Positions 2,205 to 46,897 of a DNA stretch of 64,000 nucleotides are shown here, in pieces. The stretch spans positions 30,779-94,778 of the forward strand of contig JBIOIY010000005.1 of NCBI GenBank assembly GCA_044450345.1. Reading direction: 5' to 3'. Numbering within the stretch: position 1 is the first letter of the stretch; every line of letters starts with the position of its first letter. The notes under the pieces were generated by a model. It did no database searches and had not been told where the DNA came from. It saw nothing but the letters and a program-made list of their open reading frames with translations. This DNA comes from Thermodesulfovibrionales bacterium. Its GTDB lineage: Bacteria; Nitrospirota; Thermodesulfovibrionia; Thermodesulfovibrionales; UBA6898. A program made the position numbers and the translations under genes.

Positions 2205-2209
2205 CCCGC

Positions 2210-3004: not shown

Positions 3005-3070
3005 TGTTGCTACTTATACAAATTATAGAATAAATGGGGGAATAAATACACGAACGTGCTGTCGCAGAAG

Positions 3071-8555: not shown

Positions 8556-9077
8556 CGTCTGTATTATACATTTTTTCGAGGGCGCGTCAACACAAGCCCG
8601 AAAGGGATTTTTCCTGGAAAAAGCAATCCGGAAAAGGCTCCGGTCTTCCAGGCTGCGCTCACCTTGCTATAATCCTTTGCCAAAATTACCCCCTACCCAG
8701 GTAGGATTGAATATCCGTCTCATAAATCGCAAACTATACATAAATAGCGGAGTGAATTGATTATTTTGTCGCCAGGCTTCTCAACATGGCAGTAAAATGT
8801 TATTATTATTAATCAAAAATTATAAAAAAGAGTTGTCTGCCAACTCGGAGAGAAATATGCACAAAACAACTTCTTCAGGTATGGCCAACGTAGTGTCTCA
8901 TAAAGACCCTTTTTCTAATTATCATGCCGGCTTCTCCGGCCTGAGACTCATAGAGAATCTTGAAGAAGGATTGCATACAAGCCGAAACTACATCCGGCGT
9001 AATCATACTTGCTTTCCTTACGGTACGTATTTAGTTTCGAGTAATAACGTATGTCCCTATGTAGCGGAGGTATAGCA

Positions 9078-12000
9078 ATGTCTAAAAAGAAATTCACAAA
9101 ATCGACACTCATCCTTTTTAAGCTGTTATTAGCTCTTACATTCTTATTATTTTGCGCGACATACGGCTATGCCGCCGGTCCTGCGGGCTACTCGGAATAC
9201 TATATTCCGGGTGACGAAGACGATATGGGCCTCGTCCTCTGCTCCTATGGGGCGACTGCTTGCCCCGCAGGCTACCACATGCACACCGTGATCAGCGTGA
9301 CCGCCTGGTCGGACAACACGACAATCTATTACGACCAATGGGAAAACGGCTATAACTTTGATCCGAACAACCCCGGTGCTACTGCCGATGAGACATACAC
9401 GCTCAACGCTGGTCAGGTCATGGTTTTCGAGAGCGCAAACATAGCCTTACCCCGCACTGCTACCCCCCCGGCAACAACTTGCACCAACTACCGCAACGGG
9501 ACACTTATCGGCACCTCTACGACTTGCTACGACGGAAAAGACAGGATCTACGTGGCGGGAGGAACTGTAACAGTCACGCGCGTAAGCTACATTGAGGAGA
9601 GGGGTGTGGGTCTCCAGGGGGCGGCGTGGGAGATCTACCCTCTCCAGCCACAGTTGACGACCTATGCCGTCCCTTTTGGGGAAACCAACGGTTGGTACGG
9701 CTTCCAGCGAGTGAGCACACTCATCCAGGCCACGCAAAATAATACTGTTGTTACCGTGGACCTCAACCACGACGGCACCCCGGACCCATTATATACCCAG
9801 GCTGGCGTCCTCATTGGTCCCAGCGTCACGCTGCAACAAGGACAGACCTTTCTGTTGAACGACGTGAGCGCTAACGTTGCCGCGGGGACCATGGCCGGCG
9901 GAGCGATAATCACGGGGTCCAGTACGCTTCAGGTCAAATACCTCGCCGGGCGTACGGACGTTAACAATTGCACGCGCGGGTTCAGCGCCTTTCCGCGCGG
10001 ATTCTGGACAAAGGACTATTATGCGCCGCTAAGCCAGCCCGGCGTAGATCTCACCGGGCAGGCGAGCGACACCGACTACTACCTGTATAACCCAAACTCT
10101 GCTGCCATCACGGTTAACTGGCAAGGCACCGCCACTTCGGGGTCATTCCCTATCCCTGCCACCTCCACCGTCTCTTTCCGGACGGCTTCGGGCGGCGCGG
10201 TACCGACCGGCTCGGGGCTTTATTTCAATGGAAGCGATATCTTCTGGGGGGTCGGTTCAAACGATACCGATAACATCGGCGGCGCGAGCGGATACGCCCA
10301 CGAGTGGGGATTCAGCCTGCTGCCGTCTACTATGCTCTTCACAGAGCACTATCTCGGCTGGGCCCCTGACGGCCTTCCCCTTGCTGCCGGGCAAACCGAG
10401 ATGGGCGTCTTTCTCACACCCGCCCAGGACAACACGCGCGTCTTCGTGGACTTCAACAACGACGGCATTATCGATCAGACGTATACGCTGAACCGGTTGC
10501 AGACCCAGTACATCACAAATCCCAACGGCGACTTGTCGGGGGCGCACTTCTGGGCGAGCGGCCCCTTCACCATGGCCTACGGCCAGAACTCCGCCACATC
10601 GAACCTCAGTTCCCCCGCGCTGGACCTCGGCTACATCGCCATCCCCGGAAGCGACTTTGTCTCCCTTGTACTCACGGTTGCCAAGTCCGTCAGCCCACAA
10701 GTCGTGCCCACTGCGTCAGGTTCAGTTGCGACATTCACGATCAAGGTTGACTCCCAAAAATACACGGTTGATGGGGTGAACGTCACCGACTATTTGCCGC
10801 CGAACTGGAACTACGTTGTCGGCACAGACACCACAACCATAACTAGACCTGACCTGACCACGGTCACCGGCTCTTCAGCAGACCCTACGAAAACCGGCGC
10901 CGGACCTTACACCCTCACCTGGAGCAGCGCCCAGCTCGGCACGAACGGAACTCCCGGTATGGCCACAAACCAGGAGGTCACTATCACCTTCACCTCACGG
11001 ACAACGGCTGTACTTGCCGTCGGAACTTTGAGCCAAAACAAGGTAAAGGCCGTCGGTACAAGGACGTTCGGCACGCCGAGTCAGACACAAACCTTCACGG
11101 CATCAGACTTCGTCTACGTTACCTCCGGTGCAGTCACCATCACTAAAACATCGAGTGTTCCTGCTGCTACCCCTGTTTCTCCCGGCGACAGCTTCACGTA
11201 CTCCGTGGTGGTTGCCAACCCGTCTGCTAGCGGAGTCACTTTGACTAACCTCTCGCTGTACGATGCTCTGCCCACCGGCGTGACCAATGTCGCTGGGACG
11301 ACCACCATCAGCCGCGCATCAACTGTCGCAGATACTTTCACGACCCAGGCATACAGCAACAACGACGGCACCCAACCCTGGGCAGGCAACTGGACCGAGA
11401 CGGACATTAGCGGAACAAACCCCGGCCCCGCCGGGCCGACTACGGGGTTTGTGCAGGTCGCAGGCAATGCGCTGAGATTCGGATATCAGGCTTCAAACGT
11501 GGCCGACAACTTCAACACGGGCAGCGTCTTCACTCAGAATGACGGCAACACCAACTGGTCCGGAAACTGGACGGAAACCGGCGATAACAATAACCCCGCC
11601 ACAGGAACCATCCAGTTCAATGTGGCTGCGGCCGGGAAGGTCGATTTTACGAGATGTGGTGCGGCCGGCTGCAACATCCAGAGGTCAGCTCCGTTCTCGG
11701 GAGGCAATGTCACCATAAGCTTTGTGCTTACCCAGAATGGTCTTGCAGTCAACGAGTTTCTGGAGGGTGACTACAGCCTCAATGGCGGCACAACCTGGGT
11801 CGGTATGCAGAGGATTACAACGGGCAACGCACTTTCAACACCGCCGGGCGGCTGCGGCAATCCATGCACGATCTCCACTGCTGGCGCCACTTCGCTTACA
11901 GTTCGTTTCCAGGAGACTACTCGGTGGGCCACCAACACCCACCATGCGCAGGTCGATAATGTCAACATCGCCTTTAATGATTCCATCGGATCTGCCGCTC

Positions 12001-15000
12001 AGCGGACCGCGAACCTTACCGGCGCTACCAGCGCAACGCTCAACTTCACTTACGCTTCCGCGAACCTCGCGGGGACCGATACTGTGGTAGTCCAAGCGAG
12101 CAATGCCGCAGCCGGGCCCTTCACCACACTGGCGACGTTTACTGCGGGAACTCCTAATGTTGCGCCCCCATACAATCTGACTACTTATATCTCGGCCAAC
12201 ACCACTATTCGATTCCTTGTTACGGGCGGAATCAACGCTCCGACCAAGACCTTCTCCGTCGATAACGTCACATTGGCCTATAACACATCCCTGGCAGGCG
12301 CTAATCCGCCTGAACTGGTCTCTTCCAGTTCCGCCTACAATCTTACTCCCGGCGAAACACTTACAGCATCTTTCGACGTTACAGTGGACAATCCCCTGGC
12401 AGCAGGGATCGACACCATAACCAACACCGCCTCGACAACATCAACCCAGTTCCCGATACAACTCAGCGCGAGCGTCACTAATCTTGTCGTCAACCCTTCT
12501 TCCGGGAGCGCCAGTGTGGGAAATAGGGTCTGGCTGGACTCAGACGGCGACGGCGTACCGGAAGTGGGAGAGCCCGGTCTGGCCAATGTGGAGGTGATGC
12601 TGAAGGACCAGTTCGGCACGCCGGTTATGGTGACTACCACTGACGCCACAGGGCATTACCAGTTCACTGGCGTGAAAGCCGGAAGCGGGTATTATGTCGA
12701 GGCAACCTCAAGTACCATTCCGTCCGGGTTGACCCAATCCGCCGCAACCGGTAGTAACAACCGCACGAGTGCCTTCAATCTGACCGCGGGTCAGTCTTAT
12801 ACGAGTGCGAACTTGGGGTATAAACCTGTTACTGGGACTGCCACCATCGGCAATTTTGTATGGTCCGATGCAAACGCCGACAACATACGTAATCCCGGTG
12901 AGCCCGGCATAGCCGGAGTTACCGTCAGACTTTACATAGACACTAACCGCAACGGCACCTACGAGGCCGGGACCGATACCCTTTGTACTATCGCCACTTG
13001 CGGTACAAACGGCACTACCACAACCGCTCCGGACGGAAGCTATTTGTTTACCGGCGTGACCGCCAGCGGAACTCAGGATTACATCGTTTATATCGACGAG
13101 ACAGCCCTATTGGCAGCGGGATATGTGCGGACGTCTCCTCCCAGCGGCGGCCCCCTGTTCTCTATCATGAATGTCAGCGCCGGGGCCTCCATCCTCTATG
13201 CGAACTTCGGCTATCAGGGGACGACATACTCGATCGCAGAACGCGTCTGGTTTGATGTCAATGGTAGCGGCACTCCGGACGCAGGCGAATCAGGGATTGG
13301 CCTGGTGACGGTTGAACTGCTTGATGCCAGCCTCAACGCGATCGCAACTACAACGACTGACGCCAATGGGTATTTTACTTTCTCCGGAGTGAAGGGGGGC
13401 GGGGCCAACTACACAGTCAAGATCACCGACACGAACGCTGTACTGGCCAATTATTTCGGCACAACTGTCGCAGCTACGGCCGGCAGTGAAAAAATCAATA
13501 ACCTCAGCGGCAATATCGACTATACCTCGACGCCTCATTTTGGGTTTAATCTAAGCAGGAGCATCAGCGGCACCGTGTTCAACGACAATGGGGCCGGCGG
13601 CGGTACCCTTGGCGACGGCATCAAAAACGGCAGCGAGCCTGGAATCTCCGGGGTGGTCGTAAAATTATACAACGACGCAAACGGTAATGGGCAGATCAAT
13701 GCACCTAGCGATGCCGTGATCGCCACCGTAACGACCGATGCCAACGGCAACTATATTTTCTCCGGTCTGAGCAACGGCAATTACATCGTCAGTATCGAAT
13801 CACCTCCTGCCGGGTACACGTACGCCGGGACCGATAGCGATGCAGGCACCACGGGGCAGCAGAGAGCAGCAAGTATTGTCAGTAACGGCAACGCGCCGAA
13901 CATAAACTTCGGGTATCATGCTTCTACGCCCCGCAGTGTATCAGGCACGCTGTGGGAAGACACCAATAAGAACGGTGTTATGGATAGCGGTGAGGCCGAC
14001 ATATCTGGAGTGACGATCGATTTGCTCAATGCAAGTCTCGCCGTTGTTGCCACCGCAACCACGGACGCCCACGGCTTTTACAGCTTCACCGGCATAGCAA
14101 GCGGCACTCCTTATTATGTCAAGATTACCGACAACAACGGTGTTTTGAGCGGATACACTCCAACCTACCAAATTACCGGGGGCACCGCAGGTCCTTTCAC
14201 AGGGCAGGAAACCGTTAATCTGAGCAGCGGGGACAAAAACGGCGTCAATTTCGGCTACTATAATCCCATCCCCACTCTGGCTGTCATCTCTTATTTCGGT
14301 GCCTATGAAAAAGACGGCAAGGTTATAGTACAGTGGGAGACGGCCTCTGAGATAAATACACTGGGATTTAATCTTCTCAGGCTCGATCCTCTCACGGGAG
14401 AATACAAGCAAGTCAATTCGGGTCTCCTCCCCTCTATGCTCAAGCCCCACCGGGGGGGGAAATATACCTTCAAAGACACCGGGTCCCTGCCAGGAAAAAC
14501 CTATACATACAAGCTAATCGAGATTGAAGTGGATGGGAATGAGCGGTCCTATGGCCCATTCGCAGTCTTCCCCGCAAGGATAACGGATGACAAAGGTCTT
14601 GACCTCTCCACCAATGCAGATTACGGACGGACTGAGCGTGACAAGCCTGAAATGCATAAGGTCCGCACAGACGGTAGAAAGTCCGGGCAGCCGGGCAATG
14701 TCAAGACTGGAAGCGGAGAACGAATAAAAATATCTGTTATGGACAGCGGGATTTATTACGTGGATGCGAAGGACATCTCCTCTTTACTCGGGATATCTGC
14801 GGACAAGATCCCTTCCATGATAGGTCACGGCCAGTTGTCTCTGAGTAATCAGGGCAAGCAGGTCGCCTATCTGCCTGCAGCAAATAACGCCGGCCTTTAC
14901 TTTTACGGGACAGGGATAGACAGCATCTACACAAAAGAGAACGTCTACTGGCTCGACAAGGGCGCAGGGACACTCATGCCCGTGGTTGAGGGCACAGGCC

Positions 15001-16796
15001 CAGCGCCGTCGCCGGAGGGAGGCAGCTTCACCGAGACAGTGCATCTTGAGGAAGATGTGATTCCGTGGGAAACACTTTTCAACGACCCCAATGTCGATTA
15101 CTGGTTCTGGAACCAGATATTTGCGAGCAATTTTTACACCGATCCCGCGAGGAGTTTCACGTTCCAGCCGCTTGGGCCGGCTCCCCAGACCACGGCCGTG
15201 ATGCAGGTTCATCTTTTCGGCGGATCAGATGCGGGAGTAACGAATGACCACCATGTTGTGGTGAGTCTCAACGGTCTGTCGGTAGAGGACTGGTGGAGCG
15301 GTTTGACCCCCCATACCATTACCGGAAGGTTTCCTTTGCAGCCGGGCGAAAACATCATTACGGTAGCGGCTGAGGCCGACGAAGGGGTTTCGTCGAGTTT
15401 TATTTTAATTGATTCATTCGATATTACTTATAAGCGGCTTTACGATGCTGACGGCGACAAACTCTTCTTCAGAGGAGACGGAGCCCCGTCGGTGACCATC
15501 GGAGGATTTGCGTCAGCCGGCATCAAGGTCTTTGACCTCACGAATCCCATCATACCGAAATTAAATGCGGCCACCACGATCGAATCTTCCTCAGCATCAG
15601 GGACGGCCAGCTATACCGTCAGCCTGAAACCCGCTTCTGCAAATACCCCTTATATTGCCGTAGCTTCCGCAGGGATAAAAGCGGCGTCTGCCAAGGCGGC
15701 GTCTTTTTCCAAACTTTCTGCGAAGCAAAATTCGGCCGACTACATCGTCATCGCCCCTTCTGAATTGGTTTCCACCGCCCAGGGCCTTGCCGACTACCGG
15801 GCAGGACAGGGTATGAAGACGATGGTGGTGAATCTGGAAGATATCATGAACGAATTCAACTATGGGATATCAAGCCCGGAGGCTATTAAGTCATTCCTGT
15901 CTGTTGCCCATTCGAAATGGAAAAAGTCACCAAGATATGTAGTCCTGGTCGGAGACGGAAGCTTGGACTATAAAGATAATCTGGGATTCGGCGGGAACCT
16001 CATTCCATCGAAGTTGGTGCCTACCGACTTTGGTCTTGCCATGTCGGACAATTACCTTGCAGATATCAACGGAGACCATCTGCCGGAGATTGCCATTGGA
16101 AGACTGCCGGTAGCAAACCCTGCCGAGTTGCAAACCGTCATCGGCAAGATAAAGACCTATGAGCGCAACCTCGGAAACACCCGCGTGGTCCTCGTGGCTG
16201 ATACTCCCGGTGATGGAGGAGACTTTATCGCCGATAGCGAAACGCTTGCGGGCCTTTTCCCATACGGCTATGCTCTCACCAGGATCTACCTGGACGACCC
16301 GGCTATAGTCGACGCAAAAAGGGCGGCCCTCATAAGCGCCATAAACCAGGGGGCGGCTTTCTTTAATTATGTGGGGCATGCCGGGCCCGATCAACTTTCT
16401 AATTCAGGGTTGTTGTCTTATTATCCCTATCCTGAGTACAATCCGCCTACAAACGATTTGCCTTCGCTGACAAACGCAGCCATACTGCCGGTGATGACCG
16501 CCATGACATGCGGACTGGGTAATTTCTCCGACCCCTACGAAGACGTGCTGACGGAGGCGCTGCTGCTGAAGTCGGACGGTGGAGTTGCCGCCGCGTGGTC
16601 GCCGACAGGACTTTCTGATGATTCGCAGGCGGGGATTCTCAACCGTGAGTTTTATAAGGCAGTCTTTTCCGCCAAAAAAGCTGTACTCGGTGACGCGGTC
16701 CTTCAGGCGCTTTCGGTTTACAAGAAGCAGGGATCGATGCCGTTTATGATGGATACCTATTGCATACTGGGTGATCCTGCCCTTAGAATAAGGTAA
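9078..16796 (+). CDS. Giant secreted multidomain protein: DUF11 domains, five SdrD-B-like repeats, C-terminal C25 (gingipain/PorU-like) cysteine peptidase
   Basis: ATG 9078 follows GGAGG (track ORF starts 9051). Signal peptide; DUF11 motifs (LTVAKSVSP..., PGDSFTYSVVVAN); repeats G.RVW.D.DGDG..GEPG; WETASEINTLGFNLLR; C25 motifs ADYIVIAP, YVVLVGDG, EIAIGRLP, YVGHAG, TAMTCG, ILGDPAL. Confidence 0.85.
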   Translation: MSKKKFTKSTLILFKLLLALTFLLFCATYGYAAGPAGYSEYYIPGDEDDMGLVLCSYGATACPAGYHMHTVISVTAWSDNTTIYYDQWENGYNFDPNNPGATADETYTLNAGQVMVFESANIALPRTATPPATTCTNYRNGTLIGTSTTCYDGKDRIYVAGGTVTVTRVSYIEERGVGLQGAAWEIYPLQPQLTTYAVPFGETNGWYGFQRVSTLIQATQNNTVVTVDLNHDGTPDPLYTQAGVLIGPSVTLQQGQTFLLNDVSANVAAGTMAGGAIITGSSTLQVKYLAGRTDVNNCTRGFSAFPRGFWTKDYYAPLSQPGVDLTGQASDTDYYLYNPNSAAITVNWQGTATSGSFPIPATSTVSFRTASGGAVPTGSGLYFNGSDIFWGVGSNDTDNIGGASGYAHEWGFSLLPSTMLFTEHYLGWAPDGLPLAAGQTEMGVFLTPAQDNTRVFVDFNNDGIIDQTYTLNRLQTQYITNPNGDLSGAHFWASGPFTMAYGQNSATSNLSSPALDLGYIAIPGSDFVSLVLTVAKSVSPQVVPTASGSVATFTIKVDSQKYTVDGVNVTDYLPPNWNYVVGTDTTTITRPDLTTVTGSSADPTKTGAGPYTLTWSSAQLGTNGTPGMATNQEVTITFTSRTTAVLAVGTLSQNKVKAVGTRTFGTPSQTQTFTASDFVYVTSGAVTITKTSSVPAATPVSPGDSFTYSVVVANPSASGVTLTNLSLYDALPTGVTNVAGTTTISRASTVADTFTTQAYSNNDGTQPWAGNWTETDISGTNPGPAGPTTGFVQVAGNALRFGYQASNVADNFNTGSVFTQNDGNTNWSGNWTETGDNNNPATGTIQFNVAAAGKVDFTRCGAAGCNIQRSAPFSGGNVTISFVLTQNGLAVNEFLEGDYSLNGGTTWVGMQRITTGNALSTPPGGCGNPCTISTAGATSLTVRFQETTRWATNTHHAQVDNVNIAFNDSIGSAAQRTANLTGATSATLNFTYASANLAGTDTVVVQASNAAAGPFTTLATFTAGTPNVAPPYNLTTYISANTTIRFLVTGGINAPTKTFSVDNVTLAYNTSLAGANPPELVSSSSAYNLTPGETLTASFDVTVDNPLAAGIDTITNTASTTSTQFPIQLSASVTNLVVNPSSGSASVGNRVWLDSDGDGVPEVGEPGLANVEVMLKDQFGTPVMVTTTDATGHYQFTGVKAGSGYYVEATSSTIPSGLTQSAATGSNNRTSAFNLTAGQSYTSANLGYKPVTGTATIGNFVWSDANADNIRNPGEPGIAGVTVRLYIDTNRNGTYEAGTDTLCTIATCGTNGTTTTAPDGSYLFTGVTASGTQDYIVYIDETALLAAGYVRTSPPSGGPLFSIMNVSAGASILYANFGYQGTTYSIAERVWFDVNGSGTPDAGESGIGLVTVELLDASLNAIATTTTDANGYFTFSGVKGGGANYTVKITDTNAVLANYFGTTVAATAGSEKINNLSGNIDYTSTPHFGFNLSRSISGTVFNDNGAGGGTLGDGIKNGSEPGISGVVVKLYNDANGNGQINAPSDAVIATVTTDANGNYIFSGLSNGNYIVSIESPPAGYTYAGTDSDAGTTGQQRAASIVSNGNAPNINFGYHASTPRSVSGTLWEDTNKNGVMDSGEADISGVTIDLLNASLAVVATATTDAHGFYSFTGIASGTPYYVKITDNNGVLSGYTPTYQITGGTAGPFTGQETVNLSSGDKNGVNFGYYNPIPTLAVISYFGAYEKDGKVIVQWETASEINTLGFNLLRLDPLTGEYKQVNSGLLPSMLKPHRGGKYTFKDTGSLPGKTYTYKLIEIEVDGNERSYGPFAVFPARITDDKGLDLSTNADYGRTERDKPEMHKVRTDGRKSGQPGNVKTGSGERIKISVMDSGIYYVDAKDISSLLGISADKIPSMIGHGQLSLSNQGKQVAYLPAANNAGLYFYGTGIDSIYTKENVYWLDKGAGTLMPVVEGTGPAPSPEGGSFTETVHLEEDVIPWETLFNDPNVDYWFWNQIFASNFYTDPARSFTFQPLGPAPQTTAVMQVHLFGGSDAGVTNDHHVVVSLNGLSVEDWWSGLTPHTITGRFPLQPGENIITVAAEADEGVSSSFILIDSFDITYKRLYDADGDKLFFRGDGAPSVTIGGFASAGIKVFDLTNPIIPKLNAATTIESSSASGTASYTVSLKPASANTPYIAVASAGIKAASAKAASFSKLSAKQNSADYIVIAPSELVSTAQGLADYRAGQGMKTMVVNLEDIMNEFNYGISSPEAIKSFLSVAHSKWKKSPRYVVLVGDGSLDYKDNLGFGGNLIPSKLVPTDFGLAMSDNYLADINGDHLPEIAIGRLPVANPAELQTVIGKIKTYERNLGNTRVVLVADTPGDGGDFIADSETLAGLFPYGYALTRIYLDDPAIVDAKRAALISAINQGAAFFNYVGHAGPDQLSNSGLLSYYPYPEYNPPTNDLPSLTNAAILPVMTAMTCGLGNFSDPYEDVLTEALLLKSDGGVAAAWSPTGLSDDSQAGILNREFYKAVFSAKKAVLGDAVLQALSVYKKQGSMPFMMDTYCILGDPALRIR
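12513..14262 (+). repeat. Five tandem SdrD-B-like (~110-130 aa) repeats within the giant protein
   Basis: Repeat starts SVGNRVWLDSDGDG, TIGNFVWSDANADN, SIAERVWFDVNGSG, SISGTVFNDN and SVSGTLWEDTNKNG. Each has a T-T-D/A-x-x-G-x-Y/F core and ends NFGY-like. Boundaries approximate. Confidence 0.8.
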
Positions 16797-16805
16797 AATA
16801 CAAAT

Positions 16806-17123
16806 ATGTCTAGTGGTACAGCAGAGGACAATATCTGGATAAAGGTATTCGAGAGGCCGAAGAACATCGTCTCCCGCAGTATCGCAGGAGAGCTTTTTCT
16901 CGTCCCGGTTGCGGGAAAACTTGCCGATATGCAGAGGATGTTCGCTCTTACTGCGGTCGCTGAGTTCATTTGGGAGAGGCTGGACGGCCGAAGGAGCCTG
17001 GATGATATCCGCAACGATGTTCTGGAATATTTTGACGCCGAGGAAGAACAGGTCGAAGCTGATATCAAGGCTTTTGTGACCGAACTTATGGCAGAGGGCC
17101 TTCTCATTGAGGTAACTGGCTGA
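16806..17123 (+). CDS. PqqD-family RiPP recognition element (RRE)
   Basis: VSRSIAGELFLVP...ALTAVAEFIWERLDGRRSLDDI...YFDAEEEQVEADIKAFVTELMAEGLL; starts 9 nt after the giant ORF. Confidence 0.9.
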   Translation: MSSGTAEDNIWIKVFERPKNIVSRSIAGELFLVPVAGKLADMQRMFALTAVAEFIWERLDGRRSLDDIRNDVLEYFDAEEEQVEADIKAFVTELMAEGLLIEVTG

Positions 17124-17125
17124 CC

Positions 17126-18247
17126 ATGCAATGTCACGATACAAAATGGCCGGACACAGGAGAATATCTGGAGGAGTTTATTGCGAAGGCCGAACAGCTT
17201 CATATCCCCCTTGCCGGAAGCCTGGAACTGACCCACCGATGCAATCTCAACTGCGTCCACTGTTATCTTGGACAGCAGGCCAAAAGGCAGGTACTTCGGG
17301 ACCGCGAGATGAGCGCAGCCAGGATACACACTTTAATCGACGAGATTACGGAGGCCGGTTGTCTGAATCTGCTGATCACAGGGGGGGAGCCCCTTCTGAG
17401 GGAAGATTTTCCTGAGATTTATCGCCATGCAAAGGGAAACGGGCTGTTGGTCACAGTCTTTACCAATGGGACGATTATCGGGGAGAAGACTATCGAGCTG
17501 TTCTGTGATCTCCCTCCTGTTGAAGTCGAGATAAGTGTATATGGCGCTACGGAGCATGTTTATGAGAGCATTACGAGCGTCCACGGATCATATAAGAAAT
17601 GCCTGCTGGGCATCAGAGGTCTTTTGGAAAACGGCGTCAGGGTGAACCTTAAGACAATCCTCATGACCATAAACCGTCATGAGTTTACAGACATGGAAAA
17701 TATGGCGAAGGAACTCGGCGTCAGGTTCCGTTTTGATGCTGCAATATCGCCGCGCATGGACGGTGACAATTCGCCGCTCGGCCTTCGCGTCCCGCCGGAG
17801 GAGGCCATAGAGAAAGAAATGTCCGGTGCCGGGAAGGTGGAAAGCTGGAAAACTTTTTTTGAGAAATTCAAAGACCGCACACTTGGTTCCGGCCTCTACG
17901 GCTGCGGTGCAGGCCTCACCGCCTTTCATATAGACCCTTTCGGCCACATTCTTCCCTGTATGATGGCCCTTGATATGAGATACGACATCTCGGAGGCAGG
18001 ATTTAAGGAAGGATGGGACAATATTATGCACCGCATAAGGGATAAAAAGACTGCAGCCGACTTCGCCTGCAGGGGATGTGTTAAGATAAATCTCTGCGGT
18101 TACTGTCCGGGGTTTTTCAGACTGGAAAATGGTCTTGAAGACGTCCCTTCTGAATACATCTGCCGGATGGGCGGCCTTCGTTATGAATATATTCACGATC
18201 ATGCAATGAAAGGAGATCATGGTGGACAACCAGAAAAAGTCAGTTGA
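17126..18247 (+). CDS. Radical SAM protein with SPASM domain (peptide maturase type)
   Basis: ELTHRCNLNCVHCY (CxxxCxxC), TGGEPLL, TNG; SPASM Cys set CGAG...IDPFGHILPC...CRGC.....CGYCPG...C. Confidence 0.92.
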   Translation: MQCHDTKWPDTGEYLEEFIAKAEQLHIPLAGSLELTHRCNLNCVHCYLGQQAKRQVLRDREMSAARIHTLIDEITEAGCLNLLITGGEPLLREDFPEIYRHAKGNGLLVTVFTNGTIIGEKTIELFCDLPPVEVEISVYGATEHVYESITSVHGSYKKCLLGIRGLLENGVRVNLKTILMTINRHEFTDMENMAKELGVRFRFDAAISPRMDGDNSPLGLRVPPEEAIEKEMSGAGKVESWKTFFEKFKDRTLGSGLYGCGAGLTAFHIDPFGHILPCMMALDMRYDISEAGFKEGWDNIMHRIRDKKTAADFACRGCVKINLCGYCPGFFRLENGLEDVPSEYICRMGGLRYEYIHDHAMKGDHGGQPEKVS

Positions 18248-18398
18248 CAGGCTGCCGTATGCGAAACCAAGGTTGAGAATCATCACCCTTGTCGCTGAGG
18301 AAGTCCTCGCGATATCATGCAAGCAGGCCACTGGGGCGCCTGCAAAGAATGGACATGGGTGCGGATTTCCCAGTTGCCGTGCCGCAGGAGGCTCATAA
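18219..18398 (+). CDS. Putative RiPP precursor peptide, 59 aa (not in ORF track): MVDNQKKSVDRLPYAKPRLRIITLVAEEVLAISCKQATGAPAKNGHGCGFPSCRAAGGS
   Basis: Translated by hand. AAGGAG at 18210-18215, ATG 18219, TAA 18396-18398. YxxPxL leader motif (YAKPRL), Gly/Ala-rich core with 3 Cys. Overlaps the end of the rSAM gene. Confidence 0.85.
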   Translation: MVDNQKKSVDRLPYAKPRLRIITLVAEEVLAISCKQATGAPAKNGHGCGFPSCRAAGGS

Positions 18399-18431
18399 TC
18401 ATGAGATGGATATGAGCCGTTACGGAACTGG

Positions 18432-19355
18432 TTGTTTTTGAATATCGTTATCGCTGATATTCATTTCCGCATACGCTCCGGAGATATGCCCCTTCTGAAT
18501 GACCCCTCGCGAAGAACCTATGGGCCGTTCATCGCAGACAGAGTCTCTTCCGGCGAAGGGGCCGCAAGCATTGATATCACCATTGAGGCAAGAGACTTCC
18601 CCAACACCGGGCAATTAATAAAGATATTTGAAACTCCGGATTCCTGGTCTATGTTCAGGGACGGAGACCAGTATTTCTGGATGGATATCTCTGCATCGTT
18701 GGGAGGGAAGCCGGATTATGTTGCCAGTTTCCATCGGCGGCCTGAAAAGGTGACGGTCTATTGCGGGGAATCTTTTGTAACGGAAAGAGACGGCAAAAAA
18801 ATGCTCATGAACCCCATCGCCTATCCCCTGGACCAACTCTTACTTATGTATGCACTGGCGGAAAGGGAAGGTGCCTGCATGCATGCAGCCGCCCTTGATT
18901 TGGACGGTAAGGGATATCTCTTTCCCGGCAGATCGGGCGCCGGCAAGAGCACGATTGCGCGAAGCTTCACAGCCAGAAACCGTGCCTTATTGAGTGACGA
19001 CAGGGTGGTCGTCAGGAAGATAGGCGACAAATTCAGGTGCTTTGGGACACCATGGGCCGGCGATGCCGGGATTGCCGAAAACAGGAGTCTGCCTCTCAAC
19101 GGAATCTTTTTCATCCATCATGGGAATGAAAACAGGATTGAAACAATAACACCGAGAGAGGCATTTGAGAGACTCATGCCTGTGACTTCCATCCCCTGGT
19201 ACGATGATAAAGTCATGCCTGCCGTACTCTCTTTCTGTGAAGATCTGGCCCTGCATGTGCCCGCCTATGTCCTGCACTTCACGCCGGACCGCAGGGCCGC
19301 GGACTTGATTGAAGGGTTCGTTTCGGATAAGGAAATACATGGCGCTATTCCGTAA
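18432..19355 (+). CDS. HPr-kinase-like P-loop protein (RiPP-associated kinase type)
   Basis: MHAAAL..G.GYLFPGRSGAGKST (His + Walker A), LLSDDRVVVR, GTPWAG. Confidence 0.8.
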   Translation: MFLNIVIADIHFRIRSGDMPLLNDPSRRTYGPFIADRVSSGEGAASIDITIEARDFPNTGQLIKIFETPDSWSMFRDGDQYFWMDISASLGGKPDYVASFHRRPEKVTVYCGESFVTERDGKKMLMNPIAYPLDQLLLMYALAEREGACMHAAALDLDGKGYLFPGRSGAGKSTIARSFTARNRALLSDDRVVVRKIGDKFRCFGTPWAGDAGIAENRSLPLNGIFFIHHGNENRIETITPREAFERLMPVTSIPWYDDKVMPAVLSFCEDLALHVPAYVLHFTPDRRAADLIEGFVSDKEIHGAIP

Positions 19356-19370
19356 AGGATTACCTTAGGC

Positions 19371-19814
19371 ATGTTAGACATCGGCAGGGAAAATTTCCAT
19401 GATATAGCGAAAGAGGTACTGGGAAGCGGCAAAGGTCTTGTCTTTGTGGCAGGCGGGAGCAGCATGTCGCCCTTCATTAAGCATGGGGATACCGTAGAGA
19501 TACGACCTGACAGATCGTTACGGTTGGGCGATGTCGCTTTCTTAAGGAATCAGGAAGGCCGACTCGTATTGCACAGGGTCATAAAGATGACGGGGGCCGG
19601 CATAATTACGAGGGGCGACGCGGTCGAAGGGGATGACGACTTCACCCCGTTCGGAGATGTGCTCGGCAAGGCGGTCAAGTCTTCAGGATATAATTTTCAT
19701 CTGAAATTCCCGTTCAACCGGCTCATAGCCCGGGGGTTCATCCGCCCTTCGAAACTCTCGCGAAACAGATTGTTATTCCCTCTCGCCAAAAAGATTGCCT
19801 CCCTCCTCGGTTGA
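19371..19814 (+). CDS. S24/S26 family peptidase (signal peptidase-like, Ser/His type)
   Basis: GSSMSPFIKHGD, LGDVAFL, LHRVI and TRGDA are S26 box B-E-like motifs; no N-terminal TM. Confidence 0.82.
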   Translation: MLDIGRENFHDIAKEVLGSGKGLVFVAGGSSMSPFIKHGDTVEIRPDRSLRLGDVAFLRNQEGRLVLHRVIKMTGAGIITRGDAVEGDDDFTPFGDVLGKAVKSSGYNFHLKFPFNRLIARGFIRPSKLSRNRLLFPLAKKIASLLG

Positions 19815-19894
19815 GGGGAGAAACAGCATTATTTATTACGCTGTCCGGCACGCCTATTTCTCTTTTAATGCGATAGCCGCGGAGACCGTACGAG

Positions 19895-20333
19895 TTATTC
19901 GTCATGTGTCGGCTCCTGTTTCTTGATGGTTATCGGCGTATCCGCCACTCCGGCATAGAAGACAAGAATCTCTGCCGTTTTAACGCCTTCATTCTTTCCG
20001 TAATGCCGTTTATTCACGACCTCGACAATTGAATCTCCGGCTTTTAGATGTAATGTCTTGTTGTCCTCGGCAACAGCAGTCGGCTCCCCACTCAATAATA
20101 CGCCTGCATTTATAACCGGATGTTTATGCAGAGATAATGGCGCTCCCGGCGGGATTTTTATTCTGAGAATCGTCAGTTCCGGGGGTGCCCTTCGGGTAGT
20201 CGGGCAGACGGCTCCCATCCCAGCTTAAACTCGTTTTTGTTAATACATCAACCTGGACGGCATTCAGATCCCCGGCAAAAACATTACTTGATAACAATAA
20301 AGCAAAACATATTACGTAAATCAGCTTTTTCAT
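19895..20333 (-). pseudogene. Exported cupin-domain protein, frameshifted
   Basis: N-terminal half MKKLIYVICF...SWDGSRLPDYPKGTP (ATG 20333) and C-terminal half PELTILRIKIPPG...HKHPVINAGV...E...HYG lie in different frames. The shift is at the G5 run 20181-20185. Confidence 0.8.
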
Positions 20334-20522
20334 TTCATAGTCCTTTCTTTTGCACGGGGGCAGAAGATCCCCCGATCCGCTGATAAATATTAATGAAAAG
20401 GGGGAATGTATGTGAAGAAGAAAACGTGAAACGTGAGAGGTCAAAGAGTGGAACTGGATTCTCTACGGGTCGTAGACCCGCCTTCGCGGGCATAACGGAA
20501 TCGGAAAAAACCCGGACCATCC

Positions 20523-20747
20523 TCAAAGATGGCGGGCAAGCCGTCGGTTCACTTCATATATCAACCTCACGGCTATTTTTTCGGAATCGATCTCATAAGT
20601 CCCTGCGGTCAGCGCTTTTTTGATGGCCTCGATCTTACCAATCCTGATCTCGGGCAGCCGGCCGATAGCGTTTTTAAACCCTGCTATTTTCTCTGCCCTG
20701 AAATGAAGGTCCCGCCCTTCCGGCGGCATACCGCCATCTGTCTTCAT
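20523..20747 (-). CDS. flgM: Anti-sigma28 factor FlgM (short, probably internally shortened)
   Basis: LPEIRIGKIEAIKKALTAGTYEIDSEKIA matches the FlgM C-terminal signature; next to fliA; preceded by a sigma28 promoter. Confidence 0.78.
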   Translation of the reverse strand: MKTDGGMPPEGRDLHFRAEKIAGFKNAIGRLPEIRIGKIEAIKKALTAGTYEIDSEKIAVRLIYEVNRRLARHL

Positions 20748-20777
20748 TGCGACCTCCTGATGCGGGTGTTTTATTTC

Positions 20778-20804
20778 TTATCGGCACTTTTCTCAGTAAC
20801 TTTA
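20778..20804 (-). promoter_or_regulatory. Sigma28 (FliA) promoter of flgM
   Basis: Minus strand reads TAAA-GTTACTGAGAAAAGT(15 nt)-GCCGATAA, an exact match to TAAA-N15-GCCGATAA, about 30 nt upstream of the flgM ATG. Confidence 0.9.
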
Positions 20805-20939
20805 CACGAAGAGCTGTGAAACGATCTTGTCATAGACATTGACGTTAGCCGAAGCGGCGATCCTTTTGCCTTTTTTTGACCCGGTCAAAAAAACCGTTCT
20901 ACCGGGCGGTAAACTCCCTCGGTGGATTGCAGAAGGTCC

Positions 20940-21746
20940 TCACCCCGCCGTGTAAGCTCCCACCAAGGCCGCACCATCGGCCATTCTTCGGTCTTTCGCA
21001 GGACACTCCTTCGGGGAGTCCTTTGCGGCCGCCATTTTCGCTTTCAGCCTTATCAACGCCTGATTATGCAGTTGGCAGATTCTTCCTTCAGTCAGTTTCA
21101 TGATCTTGCCTATTTCTTTCATCGTGAGTTCCTCCCAGTAATAGAGCGAAAGAAGCAGCCGCTCTTTCTCGGGAAGCTCATCAATAAGCCGCGCTATCAT
21201 CTTTTTTCCCGCCTTTTCCTCCAGTGCTATCAGGGGATTGCACGCATTCGGATCAGGTATGCACTCCAGGATGTTCAGGCCGTCGTCCGTCGGGCCGTTG
21301 CCGTCGAAGTCCTCGAACCTGAACTCGACAGCGCCGTTTGCTTCGCCGAGCGTCTTGTAATACTCGTCGAGCGTGAGGTTAAGCGCGCCCGCGACTTCCT
21401 CCTCTTCCGGCGGTCTGCCGAATTCTCTTTCAAGCCCGGTATAGGCCTTCTTAAGGACGTTTACCTTCGCTTTCAGAGATCTCGGGAGCCACTCCACCGC
21501 CCGCAGTTCGTCGAGCATAGACCCCTTGATCCTGAACTCTGCGTACGTCTTTAACTTGGCCCTGCCGCGCTCATATTTTCCCATGGCGTCGAGGAGCCCC
21601 ATCAAGCCCGCGCTGATCAGGTCGTCCACCGTAAGCTGAGGCGGAAGCCGCCACGCCAGCCTGCCGGCGGTGTATTTTATAAAAGGCAAAAAATCTCGTA
21701 TGACCTGTTCCTTCTCTTCTTCCCGGATTTCTTCATCTGTCTGCAT
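20940..21746 (-). CDS. fliA: RNA polymerase sigma28 FliA/WhiG
   Basis: LPPQLTVDDLISAGLMGLLDA, TYAEFRIKGSMLDELR..WLPRS, LYYWEELTMKEIG...TEGRICQLH. Start set at ATG 21746 after AGGGAGG. Confidence 0.93.
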   Translation of the reverse strand: MQTDEEIREEEKEQVIRDFLPFIKYTAGRLAWRLPPQLTVDDLISAGLMGLLDAMGKYERGRAKLKTYAEFRIKGSMLDELRAVEWLPRSLKAKVNVLKKAYTGLEREFGRPPEEEEVAGALNLTLDEYYKTLGEANGAVEFRFEDFDGNGPTDDGLNILECIPDPNACNPLIALEEKAGKKMIARLIDELPEKERLLLSLYYWEELTMKEIGKIMKLTEGRICQLHNQALIRLKAKMAAAKDSPKECPAKDRRMADGAALVGAYTAG

Positions 21747-21848
21747 GGTGATCCTCCCTGTCCCCCGGCCCATCACCCGCGCACGCCGGAAATGCCTCAA
21801 GTGGTTCCGGCTGCGGCACAGGTCCATGACGCCTTTGTCATTTCGTAC

Positions 21849-22661
21849 CTATACGGGTACGTTCCATTTTCCTCTGACCAAGTTCCCCCAGGAAAGCTGG
21901 AGGGTCCCTTTGACCCTGCTCGGGCGCTCACGAACGAGCCTCGAAGCTATCGCCGAAATATGTTTGGCTGCCCGGCTGCCGGGATCAGCATCTATGAACG
22001 CCTTCCGTGCCATGACCGCCTTCTGTATCGAACCGTCAAGCGGGATATATCCGAGATAATCGAGGGATATGTTCGGAAACTTCTCCGTAGCAAGAGAAAG
22101 TCTTCTGAAGACCTCGATCGCATCATACCGGCCCTTTGCCAAGTTGACGAGGACCTTGAAGTCCTTCTCCTGATATCTCGTAAAAAGGGCCTTGATGAGC
22201 GCACAGGCGTCGGTCATGGAGGTCGGCTCCGGCGAAGTGACCACGATGATCTCCTGTGAGGCCATGCAGAAAAACGCGACGTTTGCGGATATCCCGGCGC
22301 CGGTGTCGATGAGGAGAAAATCCAAGTCGATATTACACGCTTCAAATTCTTCGATGAGTCTCATCCTCTGGAACTCATCGAGATCCGTCATCTCCTGCAC
22401 CCCGGAACTGGCGGGCAGTATCCTGATACCGTAAGGCCCTTCGATGATCACGTCCATGAGCCCCTTTTCTCCGTTGAGAACATGATGGATGTCATATGGC
22501 GCCGCGAGGTCCAGCAGGACATCGATATTGCCCAGGCCAAGGTCGGCGTCGAAGATCATCACTTTTTTCCCTATCTTCGCCAGGGCGACGGCAAGACTCA
22601 CCGCCATGTTGGTCTTGCCTACCCCTCCCTTCCCGCTTGTTATCGTGATCGTCCTGGCCAT
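21849..22661 (-). CDS. flhG: FlhG/FleN MinD-like ATPase
   Basis: TITSGKGGVGKT, DADLGLGNIDVLL, DTGAGIS, PEPTSMTDA; directly upstream of fliA. Confidence 0.9.
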   Translation of the reverse strand: MARTITITSGKGGVGKTNMAVSLAVALAKIGKKVMIFDADLGLGNIDVLLDLAAPYDIHHVLNGEKGLMDVIIEGPYGIRILPASSGVQEMTDLDEFQRMRLIEEFEACNIDLDFLLIDTGAGISANVAFFCMASQEIIVVTSPEPTSMTDACALIKALFTRYQEKDFKVLVNLAKGRYDAIEVFRRLSLATEKFPNISLDYLGYIPLDGSIQKAVMARKAFIDADPGSRAAKHISAIASRLVRERPSRVKGTLQLSWGNLVRGKWNVPV

Positions 22662-22814
22662 CCTGTCACCCTTTAAATCATTGTTCATCACACCACTTCT
22701 GTTAAGGACCATGTCTGAGGGTCGCTCGCTGTTCGGAAAATCGCTGTCCACCGGCGCCCTCTGCCCGCCGCTCTATACCCGCCATGTTTTTCGATTGATA
22801 CTCGCCTGGGTAGA

Positions 22815-22831
22815 ATCAAGTACCGTGCCAG
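22815..22831 (-). promoter_or_regulatory. Probable sigma54 promoter for flhG-fliA
   Basis: Minus strand CTGGCACGGTACTTGAT: perfect -24 element, with TTGA instead of TTGC at -12. Confidence 0.6.
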
Positions 22832-23142
22832 TGGAAAAACGTTGGAAATTAAGACTTTTTAGTGAGTAGATCGTTCTGCTTGGCGTCAAAGAAATGACAG
22901 AGTGATGGTTTTTCAGCTTTGTATGGAAGAGGGCAAGTCAACCAGGGAATAAGTCAAAGTCATGCCGGCCGTATCATTCGCTCTCCAATGATGAAACGCG
23001 TACCTCTATACTTCATATACTGTCAGAGGTTTGACATGAGTGCTGAAAGCGCTAAACTTGGAATAATGAGGGGTCTGTAGTCAGATTCAATCGCGCCTCC
23101 GAAAGGACGACGAGATACACTTTGCCGAGGTAAAGGAGGGAC

Positions 23143-24594
23143 ATGCACAACATACTCGTAATAGATGATACCGAATCGATCAGGGACTCACTAAGTATTT
23201 TTTTTGCGGAGGAAGGATTTCATGTTGCCGCCGCCGCGGACGGCAAAACCGGACTCGATATGCTGAGACGTGAACACTTCGACATCTTTCTCGTAGATCT
23301 CATGATGCCCGGGATGGGCGGTCTCGATGTCCTCAAAGAGACCATCGCTCGCAAAATCCACGTCCCCTGCATCGTTATGACCGGCTATGCCACTGTCCAG
23401 ACCGCGGTCGAAGCGATGAAACTAGGCGCTTTCGACTATGTCACCAAACCGTTTCTGTACGAAGAGATCCTCATAAACATACGGAGGGCGCTGGATATTT
23501 CAAAGCTGCAGAGAGAAAATGAGATGCTGAAAAAGCAGCTGAAAAGTAAATACGATTTCCACGGCCTCACCGGGACCTCGCCACAGATAGAGAAGCTCCA
23601 TAAATACATCGAAAAAATTGCGGATACGGAAAGCACCGTGCTTATCTCCGGCGAAAGCGGCACCGGCAAGGAAGTTGTCGCCAAAACTATTCACTACAAT
23701 AGTTCGAGGTCCTCCAAACCGTTCATACCGTTAAATTGCGCAGCAATTCCTAAAGACCTCCTTGAGTCGGAGCTCTTCGGACATGAAAAAGGCTCCTTTA
23801 CAGGGGCGCACACCACAAGGATAGGCCGCTTTGAACTGGCCAACGGCGGTACCCTCCTTCTCGATGAGGTAGGCGAGCTCCATCCCAACCTCCAGGCAAA
23901 GATCCTCAGGGTGCTTCAGGAAAGGGAGTTTGAACGGTTGGGCGGCACGAAGACCATTAAAACCGATGTGAGAATACTTGCAGCGACGAACAAAGACCTC
24001 TTAAAGGCGACGAAGGACGGCACGTTCAGGGAAGACCTCTACTACCGCCTCAACGTGATACCCCTTCATATACCTCCCCTAAGGGAAAGGAGAGAAGATA
24101 TCGCCGTCCTGATCGAGCACTTCATGGGCGAGATCTGCAGGAGAAAAAAGAAAAAGCCCCTGACAATAGGTACTGCGGCGATGGAACATATCATGAACTA
24201 CAGTTGGCCGGGCAACGTCAGAGAGCTCGAGAACCTAATAGAAAGACTGGTTATACTCGATGACGACGGCCTGGTTTCGACGGACGACCTCCCCGAACGT
24301 TTCTTCGAGGCGGTGCAGACCTCGGCAGAAGGCCCTGAGCAGCAGACAAAGGACCTGGCCTTCCAGACGGGAATCATTCTTCCGAGGGAGGGCATTGATA
24401 TGAATGCCTGCATCGACGAAATAGAGAGGGGCCTGATCGTGCAGGCGCTGGAAAGGGCGGGGGGGGTCAAGAAAAATGCCGCTGCGCTGCTCGGACTCAA
24501 CCGAACAACCCTCCTCGACAAGTTGAAGAAGAAAGGCATTCAGACCGGTTCTCCTGCAACTGAGGACCCAAAGGAGAAAACTTTCTCTCCTTGA
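23143..24594 (+). CDS. Sigma54-dependent response regulator (REC-AAA+-HTH; NtrC/FlgR/FleQ-like)
   Basis: REC domain (VIDD, DLMMPG); GESGTGKE; ESELFGHEKGSFTGA; LLDEVGE; WPGNVRELEN; Fis-type HTH AAALLGLNRTTL. RBS AAGGAGG. Confidence 0.93.
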   Translation: MHNILVIDDTESIRDSLSIFFAEEGFHVAAAADGKTGLDMLRREHFDIFLVDLMMPGMGGLDVLKETIARKIHVPCIVMTGYATVQTAVEAMKLGAFDYVTKPFLYEEILINIRRALDISKLQRENEMLKKQLKSKYDFHGLTGTSPQIEKLHKYIEKIADTESTVLISGESGTGKEVVAKTIHYNSSRSSKPFIPLNCAAIPKDLLESELFGHEKGSFTGAHTTRIGRFELANGGTLLLDEVGELHPNLQAKILRVLQEREFERLGGTKTIKTDVRILAATNKDLLKATKDGTFREDLYYRLNVIPLHIPPLRERREDIAVLIEHFMGEICRRKKKKPLTIGTAAMEHIMNYSWPGNVRELENLIERLVILDDDGLVSTDDLPERFFEAVQTSAEGPEQQTKDLAFQTGIILPREGIDMNACIDEIERGLIVQALERAGGVKKNAAALLGLNRTTLLDKLKKKGIQTGSPATEDPKEKTFSP

Positions 24595-24611
24595 AAATCA
24601 TGGACACTGAG

Positions 24612-26318: not shown

Positions 26319-26427
26319 AAGCGTCCTCCAACGGGTTTAGGCTTGTCAGCTATCGCCCCTGTCCCGGCCCTTCCCTTCTCGTTATCACGGATCTGTATGT
26401 CCTCCGGGACCTCCTGTGGCTACAGGA

Positions 26428-34944: not shown

Positions 34945-34956
34945 ACGTCATAGTGC

Positions 34957-39632: not shown

Positions 39633-39634
39633 AG

Positions 39635-43403: not shown

Positions 43404-43642
43404 CTTGCGGTTATTATAATAATACTATTTTTGCGTCGATTTTATCCATACATGGCATGCCGAATCCTTAAACGGCTGCCAGCTTTTGCTGTCATGCAAT
43501 TATCTTAAAAATAGGAATCGAGTGTTTCGGCGCATATAATTAAGAAGGGAGTCACGTACCGGCATAACAATTCAAAAGGGCATCTCAAATCTCTCTCACC
43601 CTGATACTACAGTCAGATCGAAGGGCGGACGCTTAGGACACC

Positions 43643-45893: not shown

Positions 45894-45958
45894 GATATTC
45901 GGATTCTACACCTTAATGAAGCAGAAATTAAAGATTAAAGACATTGACAGGATAACAC

Positions 45959-46780: not shown

Positions 46781-46897
46781 GACAGTCAAGACCTTTATTA
46801 TTGTTCCAGGTCTGGAGGCTTCATAGACTTTGAACACTCCGCTAACGAAGGAGAGGCTTTCAATAGTCCCGATGAGGGAACTTATGAGGGCGGTTTT

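Follow-up and report, generated by a model that had tools for sequence, protein, structure and literature searches.

A six-gene cassette of a Thermodesulfovibrionales bacterium with a three-cysteine precursor peptide and its probable radical-SAM and kinase modification

The closest characterised system to the locus described here is that of the linear polyphosphorylated peptides (LPP) of Bacillota (Popov et al., Nat Commun 2026, PMC13381572). According to that paper, the precursor LppA carries a YxxP leader and is presented by a discrete recognition element (RRE) for peptides that are synthesised by ribosomes and then modified post-translationally (RiPPs), LppB; the HprK-like kinase LppK polyphosphorylates Ser3 of the core, and LppS, an archaeal-type signal-peptidase-like protein (Ser/His/Asp), depends on the presence of LppB to remove the leader. 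In a 64,000-nt stretch of contig JBIOIY010000005.1 from a Thermodesulfovibrionales bacterium (phylum Nitrospirota), hereafter called the window, we analysed a 59-codon open reading frame (ORF) that starts inside the 3′ end of a radical-SAM gene, together with its neighbours. Our reading, to which we assign a probability of roughly 60%, is that six genes form an operon in which this ORF encodes a precursor peptide processed by the PqqD-family, radical-SAM, kinase and peptidase products. The genes lie on one strand in the order C25 protease, PqqD, radical-SAM, precursor, HPr-kinase-like and signal-peptidase-like, with successive gaps of 9, 2, −29, 33 and 15 nt. The genes and the features of the precursor are as follows.

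9051-16796, + strand: giant C25 protein, 2581 aa, first operon gene (Pfam Peptidase_C25 1.3e-73, residues 2231-2580)
16806-17123, + strand: discrete PqqD-family peptide chaperone (RRE), 105 aa (Pfam PqqD 3e-16)
17126-18247, + strand: radical-SAM enzyme with SPASM-type C-terminal domain, 373 aa (Pfam Radical_SAM 1.8e-22)
18210-18215, + strand: Shine-Dalgarno AAGGAG serving the precursor, whose ATG follows after 3 nt; lies within the 3′ end of the radical-SAM gene
18219-18398, + strand: precursor peptide gene, ATG start, 59 codons, TAA stop
18258-18275, + strand: YAKPRL, codons 14-19, the YxxPxL RRE-binding motif (Y14 and P17 invariant in 16 sequences)
18318-18323, + strand: invariant Cys-Lys, codons 34-35, candidate first modification or processing site
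18324-18389, + strand: hypervariable core, codons 36-57, with conserved Cys48 (18360-18362) and Cys53 (18375-18377)
18390-18395, + strand: C-terminal Gly-Ser, codons 58-59, candidate phosphorylation site (invariant in 16 sequences)
18432-19355, + strand: HPr-kinase-like P-loop kinase, 307 aa, TTG start (Pfam Hpr_kinase_C 3e-8)
19371-19814, + strand: soluble archaeal/ER-type signal-peptidase-I-like (S24/S26) protein, 147 aa (Pfam Peptidase_S24 1.9e-5)

In both systems the RRE is a discrete protein with a [Y/W]xxP leader as its ligand, the kinase is HprK-like, the leader peptidase resembles archaeal-type signal peptidases and a lasso cyclase is lacking; for the kinase and the peptidase this is a likeness of features and description. 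LPP clusters lie in capsule loci, and this cassette often stands beside exopolysaccharide export genes. They differ in that a radical-SAM enzyme, never mentioned in PMC13381572, is present here, as is a C25 protease, which LPP as described there lacks, whereas the MsbA-like exporter and the NTP transferase of LPP are both missing from this cassette. The LPP leader, YxxPxVLxHQxIxFETxxS, has only its YxxPx[L/V] part in common with this family, the LPP phosphosite is Ser3 of the core whereas the conserved Ser is C-terminal here, and the LPP cores of 35-200 aa are described without a Cys pattern.

Other described systems share parts of the set. SynChlorMet (SCM) resembles the cassette in its HprK-like, PqqD-like and radical-SAM/SPASM parts, and SCM models were among the NCBIfam matches of three window proteins, all under their cut-offs (ScmC TIGR04249, 38.5 bits against 125; ScmD TIGR04248, 39.8 against 100; ScmE TIGR04250, 82.3 against 400; ScmF TIGR04251, 75 against 400); it differs in having two radical-SAM enzymes where the window has one, and a two-radical-SAM layout was seen in distant loci (L008-L021; loci other than the window are cited by such numbers). 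The name SynChlorMet was found in no paper of the literature searched. Sactipeptides and ranthipeptides (SkfB, AlbA, CteB, PapB) resemble the cassette in having a radical-SAM enzyme of SPASM or twitch type, a leader guided by an RRE and a core with Cys, but their RRE is an N-terminal domain whereas here it is a separate protein. We know of no kinase or signal-peptidase-like enzyme in either of these two classes, and the literature searched yielded no paper describing one. Assignment to the SCM, GeoRSP, mycofactocin, PQQ, sactipeptide or ranthipeptide NCBIfam families was rejected, all scores being far under the cut-offs. Phosphorylated lasso peptides (paeninodin, pseudomycoidin; PadeK, ThcoK, SyanK, PsmK) share a His-Lys-Asp-Asp kinase, a C-terminal Ser and a YxxPxL leader with a PqqD-type B1 protein (PMC9266682); this cassette differs in carrying no cyclase, no B2 and a core without acidic residue. 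Within the literature searched, which did not extend to supplements and subscription journals, no paper among those listed was found to treat a cassette combining radical-SAM, HprK-like and signal-peptidase-like enzymes; HPr kinase and radical SAM occurred together only in the context of lasso clusters, and the words 'kinase' and 'HPr' are absent from PMC10288494 and PMC12710340.

The precursor ORF overlaps the radical-SAM gene by 29 nt. A sequence-only reading, made from the letters of the window before any search, had described this ORF, its AAGGAG inside the radical-SAM gene, its translation, three Cys in the pattern C-x13-C-x4-C (residues 34, 48 and 53) and a terminal Ser (Ser59), and all of this was recovered when the window was read again. 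The size of the ORF carries no significance on its own, 121 ORFs of at least 40 aa overlapping positions 10000-27000; it is lifted above chance by its conservation. A word-indexed search yielded 10 homologues of 58-65 aa with 57-88% identity, all unnamed or named 'hypothetical protein', and of 1.84 billion cluster representatives searched with a profile of 16 sequences, 971 matched at E≤0.001, with 71 reaching E≤1e-10. Compared with the nearest public locus (L001), 28 codons were changed, 22 synonymously and 6 non-synonymously, and the differences were distributed over the three codon positions as 9/1/21. A Shine-Dalgarno-like purine run (AAGGAG, AGGAG, GAGGAAG or AAGGGG) was found within 20 nt upstream of the start in 7/7 loci. 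The substitution pattern shows a real gene under purifying selection. A short ORF with a 29-nt overlap, of a kind that arises often by chance, could have been a chance frame or the frameshifted tail of the radical-SAM gene. That explanation, to which we give practically no weight, is refuted by the codon substitutions, by the 971 relatives and by loci such as L065 and L076, where the peptide gene stands clear of the radical-SAM gene and therefore is not its frameshifted tail. We regard the 59-codon ORF as almost certainly the precursor, that is, the substrate peptide, of the cassette. It matched no Pfam family at E≤0.01; the precursor and six related peptides matched no NCBIfam family at E≤0.01 or even at E≤10; and its 30 nearest clusters in the ESM Atlas were all 'hypothetical protein', none with a Pfam family.

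Sequence analysis of the relatives found a fixed leader register and a variable core; family counts refer to the best 150 of the 971 representatives, or to 151 sequences for column and spacing statistics. Invariant in the 16-sequence alignment were Y14, P17, L24, A26, C34, K35, C48, C53, G58 and S59, so that the frame and all three Cys, whose loss in related loci had been named beforehand as fatal to the idea, are conserved. A Tyr within [YWF]xxPx[LVIMFA] was present in 147/150 members and C[KR] in 150/150, and the offset from the motif Tyr to the Cys of Cys-Lys was exactly 20 residues in all 147 of 147; the family consensus after YxxPx[L/V] reads RxIELxAEEVLAxGCK. Column entropy was low at 14-35 and high at 36-47, 49-52 and 54-57, whereas C48 and C53 stayed at no more than about 0.1 bit. 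Exactly three Cys occurred in the whole peptide in 136/150 members, and from Cys-Lys onward in 147/151; the second and third Cys were 4 or 5 residues apart in 131/147, and 5 or 6 residues followed the third in 139/147. The last residue was Ser in 144/150 (Gly-Ser in 134), Thr in 4 and Arg in 2. A near-identical soil contig, covering the whole 3021-nt stretch, differed at 31 positions, 7 of them at 18330-18367 (binomial P ~1e-7), giving the core changes T38A, N44S, H46K and F50H with none in the leader; by this comparison the differences follow the classic pattern of a conserved leader and a fast-changing core. The fixed 20-residue register suggests that the docked leader holds Cys34-Lys35 at an active site, and this pair could be the first modification site or the cleavage site; the boundary between leader and core, placed after EEVLA, is a guess.

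The arrangement of the genes was likewise conserved. With the radical-SAM protein as query, 32 loci were found, three of which (L006, L031 and L032) stop inside the radical-SAM gene; at 39% identity or above, the peptide directly followed that gene in 6/6 loci that extend past it (L001-L005 and L007), and the full order C25-PqqD-radical-SAM-peptide-kinase-peptidase was kept in L001, L003, L004 and L007, with unrelated flanks. Twenty regions from the phylum were fetched and profile-searched with the alignments of this analysis. The peptide and the kinase were found in 20/20, the radical-SAM enzyme in 19/20, PqqD in 18/20 and the peptidase in 19/20, the misses falling mostly at contig ends. The C25 gene lay directly upstream of PqqD in 13/17 phylum loci with enough upstream DNA; among these it was absent in L077, L079, L081 and L082. 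The peptide occurred in 28/401 sampled genomes of the phylum, including 11/14 others of its own family and 0/1 of the same genus, and its own genome holds one copy. Distant loci (L008-L021, radical-SAM identity 32-37%) show a related layout: two radical-SAM genes stand with a peptide of the form WxxPxL...PEExVLxxCK, with PqqD and with a signal-peptidase-like gene, and some of these loci add an ABC exporter. In every locus that reaches far enough, the peptide gene stands between the radical-SAM and kinase genes, and the cassette is conserved across loci.

The best PDB sequence match of the PqqD protein was 9x8z_B (E 0.0076), and 9X8Z is the LppB-leader complex as given in PMC13381572. We modelled the PqqD protein (10-row alignment) with peptide residues 1-36 (16-row alignment) in three runs, which scored 0.61, 0.62 and 0.61 against 0.01 for the best control. 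The predicted interface joins peptide residues 11-25 to PqqD residues 43-52 and 72-99, with a partner pLDDT of 60-63 and at least 98% of contacts agreeing between runs; the mark applied to such models was reached by 116/157 solved complexes and by 2/215 mismatched pairs. With Y14 and P17 invariant and the modelled contact covering the motif, the proposal that YxxPxL serves as the leader for this PqqD-type RRE gains support, and the PqqD protein very probably binds the precursor leader. A failure of the RRE to bind, the second ground for refutation named beforehand, was thus not borne out in the model.

The radical-SAM enzyme carries CX3CX2C at residues 39/43/46, followed by C260-X12-G-X4-C278, C315-X2-C318-X5-C324-X2-C327 and C346, which completes the seven-Cys SPASM pattern with a fourth spacing of X2 instead of the usual X3. 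CX3CX2C together with a seven-Cys SPASM domain is typical of sactipeptide and ranthipeptide maturases. The closest solved relatives in a PDB sequence search were SkfB (6.4e-14), PqqE (2.7e-9) and CteB (1e-6). Against NCBIfam, 76 weak matches were obtained, all far under their cut-offs, and the chemistry was not discriminated: the best was MftC (109.4 bits against a cut-off of 265), with PqqE at 73.5 against 381, AlbA at 72.2 against 850, StsB at 75.3 against 625, SkfB at 62.2 against 300 and PapB at 63.3 against 340. That Cys34, Cys48 and Cys53 are made into thioethers by this enzyme is a tentative proposal from sequence, which we hold at somewhat less than even odds.

The kinase could be aligned to L. 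casei HprK/P across the His, GxSGxGKS and DD motifs, its H151, K172, D189 and D190 were invariant in 8 homologues, and its AF2 model (pLDDT 85.7) gave PEPCK and HprK fold matches. Lasso-associated HPr-kinase-like enzymes phosphorylate a strictly conserved C-terminal Ser and carry a His-Lys-Asp-Asp motif (PMC9266682). The sequence-only reading had named a C-terminal Ser as the target of these kinases, correctly in the light of that source and in keeping with the Ser ending of most family members. From the alignments, Ser59 is the phosphorylation site that we favour for this enzyme, with appreciable doubt.

The signal-peptidase-like protein scored 36.4 bits against the NCBIfam model sigpep_I_arch (cut-off 51.85), and its S31 (in GxSMxPF), H68-R69, G82-D83 and D89 were invariant in 11 homologues. 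A hydrophobic N-terminus was not found. The best fold match of its AF2 model (pLDDT 77.7) was the catalytic subunit of human SPC, the signal peptidase complex (7p2q_A, E 2.4e-4, TM 0.44), followed by LexA, SipA and SpsB; a PDB sequence search gave 0 matches. By analogy, it is likely to be the leader peptidase, a role that the sequence-only reading had not given to it.

Taken together, the proposed pathway would run as follows. The PqqD protein would dock the leader at Y14-x-x-P17-x-L19, the residues after this motif joining as an extra beta-strand, and present the peptide to the enzymes. The radical-SAM/SPASM enzyme would modify the core, most likely by thioethers from Cys34, Cys48 and Cys53 to backbone or side-chain carbons; the kinase would phosphorylate, possibly polyphosphorylate, the C-terminal Ser59; and the signal-peptidase-like Ser/His/Asp enzyme would cut off the leader between residues 29 and 34. 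The kept catalytic residues are observed and leader binding has the support of the complex model; all chemical steps, their order, the place of the cut and whatever part the C25 protein may play are inferred.

Several points weigh against this pathway. Solved RRE-leader complexes exist, and resemblance to them, which is no proof, may be what lets the complex model pass; the radical-SAM enzyme is about equidistant from sactisynthases, ranthisynthases, MftC, PqqE and heme enzymes, so that its sequence gives no bond type; there is no conserved acceptor residue besides K35, G58 and S59; and the candidate cuts after A31 and before C34 both show family exceptions to the small-residue rule. The LPP kinase targets core Ser3 and not the C-terminus (PMC13381572), so that Ser59 is a candidate phosphosite here. 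The cassette contains no exporter, though its first gene encodes a secreted protein. An alternative that we hold to be unlikely, yet the strongest of those considered, keeps the phosphopeptide and changes the rest: the product would be LPP-like, its Cys would form disulfides or a metal site instead of thioethers, and the radical-SAM enzyme would make a C-C or C-O cross-link, epimerise residues or carry out an MftC-like reaction at the conserved C-terminus. MftC, the best NCBIfam match at 109 bits, does act on a conserved C-terminus, the invariant positions are CK and the C-terminal GS and not any thioether acceptor, and the RRE/kinase/peptidase set is of the same kind as that of LPP, which is defined by phosphorylation. 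However, radical-SAM peptides that donate Cys have as their hallmark three Cys whose spacing is tightly kept, thioethers are the products of the solved relatives SkfB and CteB, the MftC score lies far below its cut-off, and the peptide has no C-terminal Val-Tyr.

The peptide might instead be a cofactor or signal precursor, a scaffold like PqqA or MftA that yields a small molecule on cleavage, for instance one made of Cys-Lys or Gly-Ser, the remaining core being a spacer. In PQQ and mycofactocin, too, a discrete PqqD accompanies a SPASM radical-SAM enzyme, few residues are invariant here and two proteases are encoded, but core length and Cys spacing are kept, the four amino-acid changes at codons 38-50 against none in the leader of near-identical strains are better suited to a bioactive or recognition peptide, occurrence is patchy (28 of 401 phylum genomes, none in the one same-genus genome), and redox partner genes were not found in the cassette. 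MftA- and PqqA-type precursors bear a C-terminal Val-Tyr or an internal Glu...Tyr; this peptide ends in Gly-Ser, its only Tyr is Tyr14 of the leader motif, and residues 32-59 contain neither Tyr nor Glu. Membership among mycofactocin or PQQ precursors was rejected on these features and on the MftC and PqqE scores, and we judge the cofactor scaffold very improbable. Less probable still, to the point of being negligible, is a lasso peptide precursor, although the YxxPxL leader, the PqqD-type RRE and the HPr-kinase-like enzyme with a C-terminal Ser all occur in paeninodin-type clusters. In lasso precursors the core holds an internal Asp or Glu for macrolactam formation, and the penultimate leader residue is a conserved Thr. 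In this family columns 29-33 are V, L, A, V and G, with no conserved Thr near the leader end, residues 32-59 lack Asp and Glu, and neither an Asn-synthase-like cyclase nor a transglutaminase-like B2 was found by Pfam among 12 + 42 window ORFs, the rest of the genome (91% complete) not having been searched for a cyclase. With no cyclase or B2 and no acidic core residue, a lasso fold is therefore not possible, and lasso identity is refuted unless a cyclase encoded elsewhere acts in trans. The label 'lasso-type' given in the sequence-only reading thus stands for the leader motif, with its invariant Tyr and Pro, and falls for the class of the peptide.

The first operon gene, which the sequence-only reading had not recognised as belonging to the operon, encodes SdrD_B/DUF11-type repeats and a C-terminal gingipain/PorU-like Peptidase_C25 domain, after an N-terminus that looks like a signal peptide by eye. 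The protein scored 204.8 bits against NCBIfam PorU (cut-off 420), and the GHAG His and the MTC Cys were invariant in 5 aligned domains. The window also holds a type II secretion/type IV pilus-like set at 32207-40333 (T2SSE, T2SSF, three prepilin-type N_methyl proteins, T2SSK, PilM/N and T2SSM) and a separate secretin gene at 53010-55226, by which the C25 protein, with its signal peptide, might be exported.

In the metatranscriptomic run X18, just two 151-nt contigs mapped to the cassette, at 17234-17384 and 17426-17576, both within the radical-SAM gene, and no contig covered the peptide gene; such libraries may contain DNA. Directly after the peptide stop codon, an imperfect hairpin (18390-18418) is followed about 15 nt downstream by a U-rich stretch. 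Its folding energy of −17.6 kcal/mol (z −1.25) was equalled by 30/200 shuffles and is not significant; it could set the ratio of precursor to enzymes. Rfam matched nothing in 8000-21000, and scans of 8400-20400 were uninformative: promoter-like sites numbered 13 (shuffles, 9.2 ± 2.9) and terminator-like sites 17 (shuffles, 11.9 ± 4.4). The GC content of the cassette (0.51-0.52) is similar to that of most of the remaining window, with no sign of a foreign island.

Variants of the gene set were seen in related loci. Some distant two-radical-SAM cassettes carry the signal-peptidase-like domain as a fusion with a GNAT acetyltransferase domain (L008:2902-3951, L010:2587-3627 and L016:2922-3941), and in a Nitrospira locus (L003:3683-4846) PqqD and the radical-SAM domain form one 388-aa ORF, either a natural fusion or an assembly frameshift. 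L068 has two precursor copies with identical core (15285-15467 and 4773-4973, both on the − strand), one in the usual place and the other upstream of the C25 gene. In the window, a formylglycine-generating-enzyme-like (FGE-sulfatase) gene at 7602-8555 (− strand) stands upstream of the C25 gene and divergent from it, and one in the same position in L068 (15808-16803) adjoins the second peptide copy. An M48 (CAAX-protease-like) membrane peptidase gene adjoins the cassette in three loci of one family (f11), L071 (3207-4361), L072 (2591-3841) and L078 (3283-4578). Four loci of one genus have a protein of 211-214 aa without Pfam family between the peptidase and BBP2 porin genes, at the following positions.

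L064, 7753-8394: 211-214-aa protein
L066, 7835-8476: 211-214-aa protein
L069, 3822-4463: 211-214-aa protein
L073, 4147-4779: 211-214-aa protein

Beside the cassette, on the − strand of the window at 6-4660, stand exopolysaccharide export genes (Wzz/GNVR/P-loop, Poly_export/SLBB and a BBP2_2 porin). Such genes were found near 9/20 phylum loci (L063, L064, L066, L069, L073, L074, L077, L079 and L082), as a BBP2_2 porin in seven, Poly_export in three, CpsB/CapC with WecG in one and a GNVR kinase in one; 47/91 flank ORFs were scanned, and the loci come from about five genera and are non-independent. LPP and paeninodin clusters are reported to be linked to capsule loci, a link which this neighbourhood echoes. 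Further along, positions 41473-47608 hold what looks like a block for sulfated-glycan modification and export, made up of an ABC-2 transporter pair, a methyltransferase, two sulfotransferases and a PIG-L deacetylase. The operon link of the C25 gene and the exopolysaccharide neighbourhood hint at a cell-surface role over a classical bacteriocin. In its full form, which we consider a long shot, this would make the product a cross-linked, C-terminally (poly)phosphorylated peptide that works with the C25 protein and the exopolysaccharide export machinery and is not a free antibiotic. The phospho-Ser end might for example be a handle, glycosylated or joined to matrix polysaccharide, and the C25 domain might be a transpeptidase in the manner of a sortase, or might carry out the last processing step by cutting after Lys35.

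The cassette is a variant of known RiPP logic and probably cross-links and phosphorylates its precursor. It would pair radical-SAM cross-linking with the kinase/signal-peptidase logic first shown in 2026 for LPP, a pairing not known in any characterised system. The precursor is the substrate of a large family of 971 cluster representatives, seen in Nitrospirota, Planctomycetota and Thermodesulfobacteriota and, as the Atlas points to, Acidobacteriota, whose enzyme set is widespread and experimentally unstudied. The identity of the precursor, the register from Tyr to Cys-Lys and the Gly-Ser end make its chemistry open to direct testing. If the cell-surface reading is true, it would tie peptide modification to surface or biofilm-matrix assembly in Nitrospirota, in parallel to the unexplained link of LPP and paeninodin with capsule loci in Bacilli.

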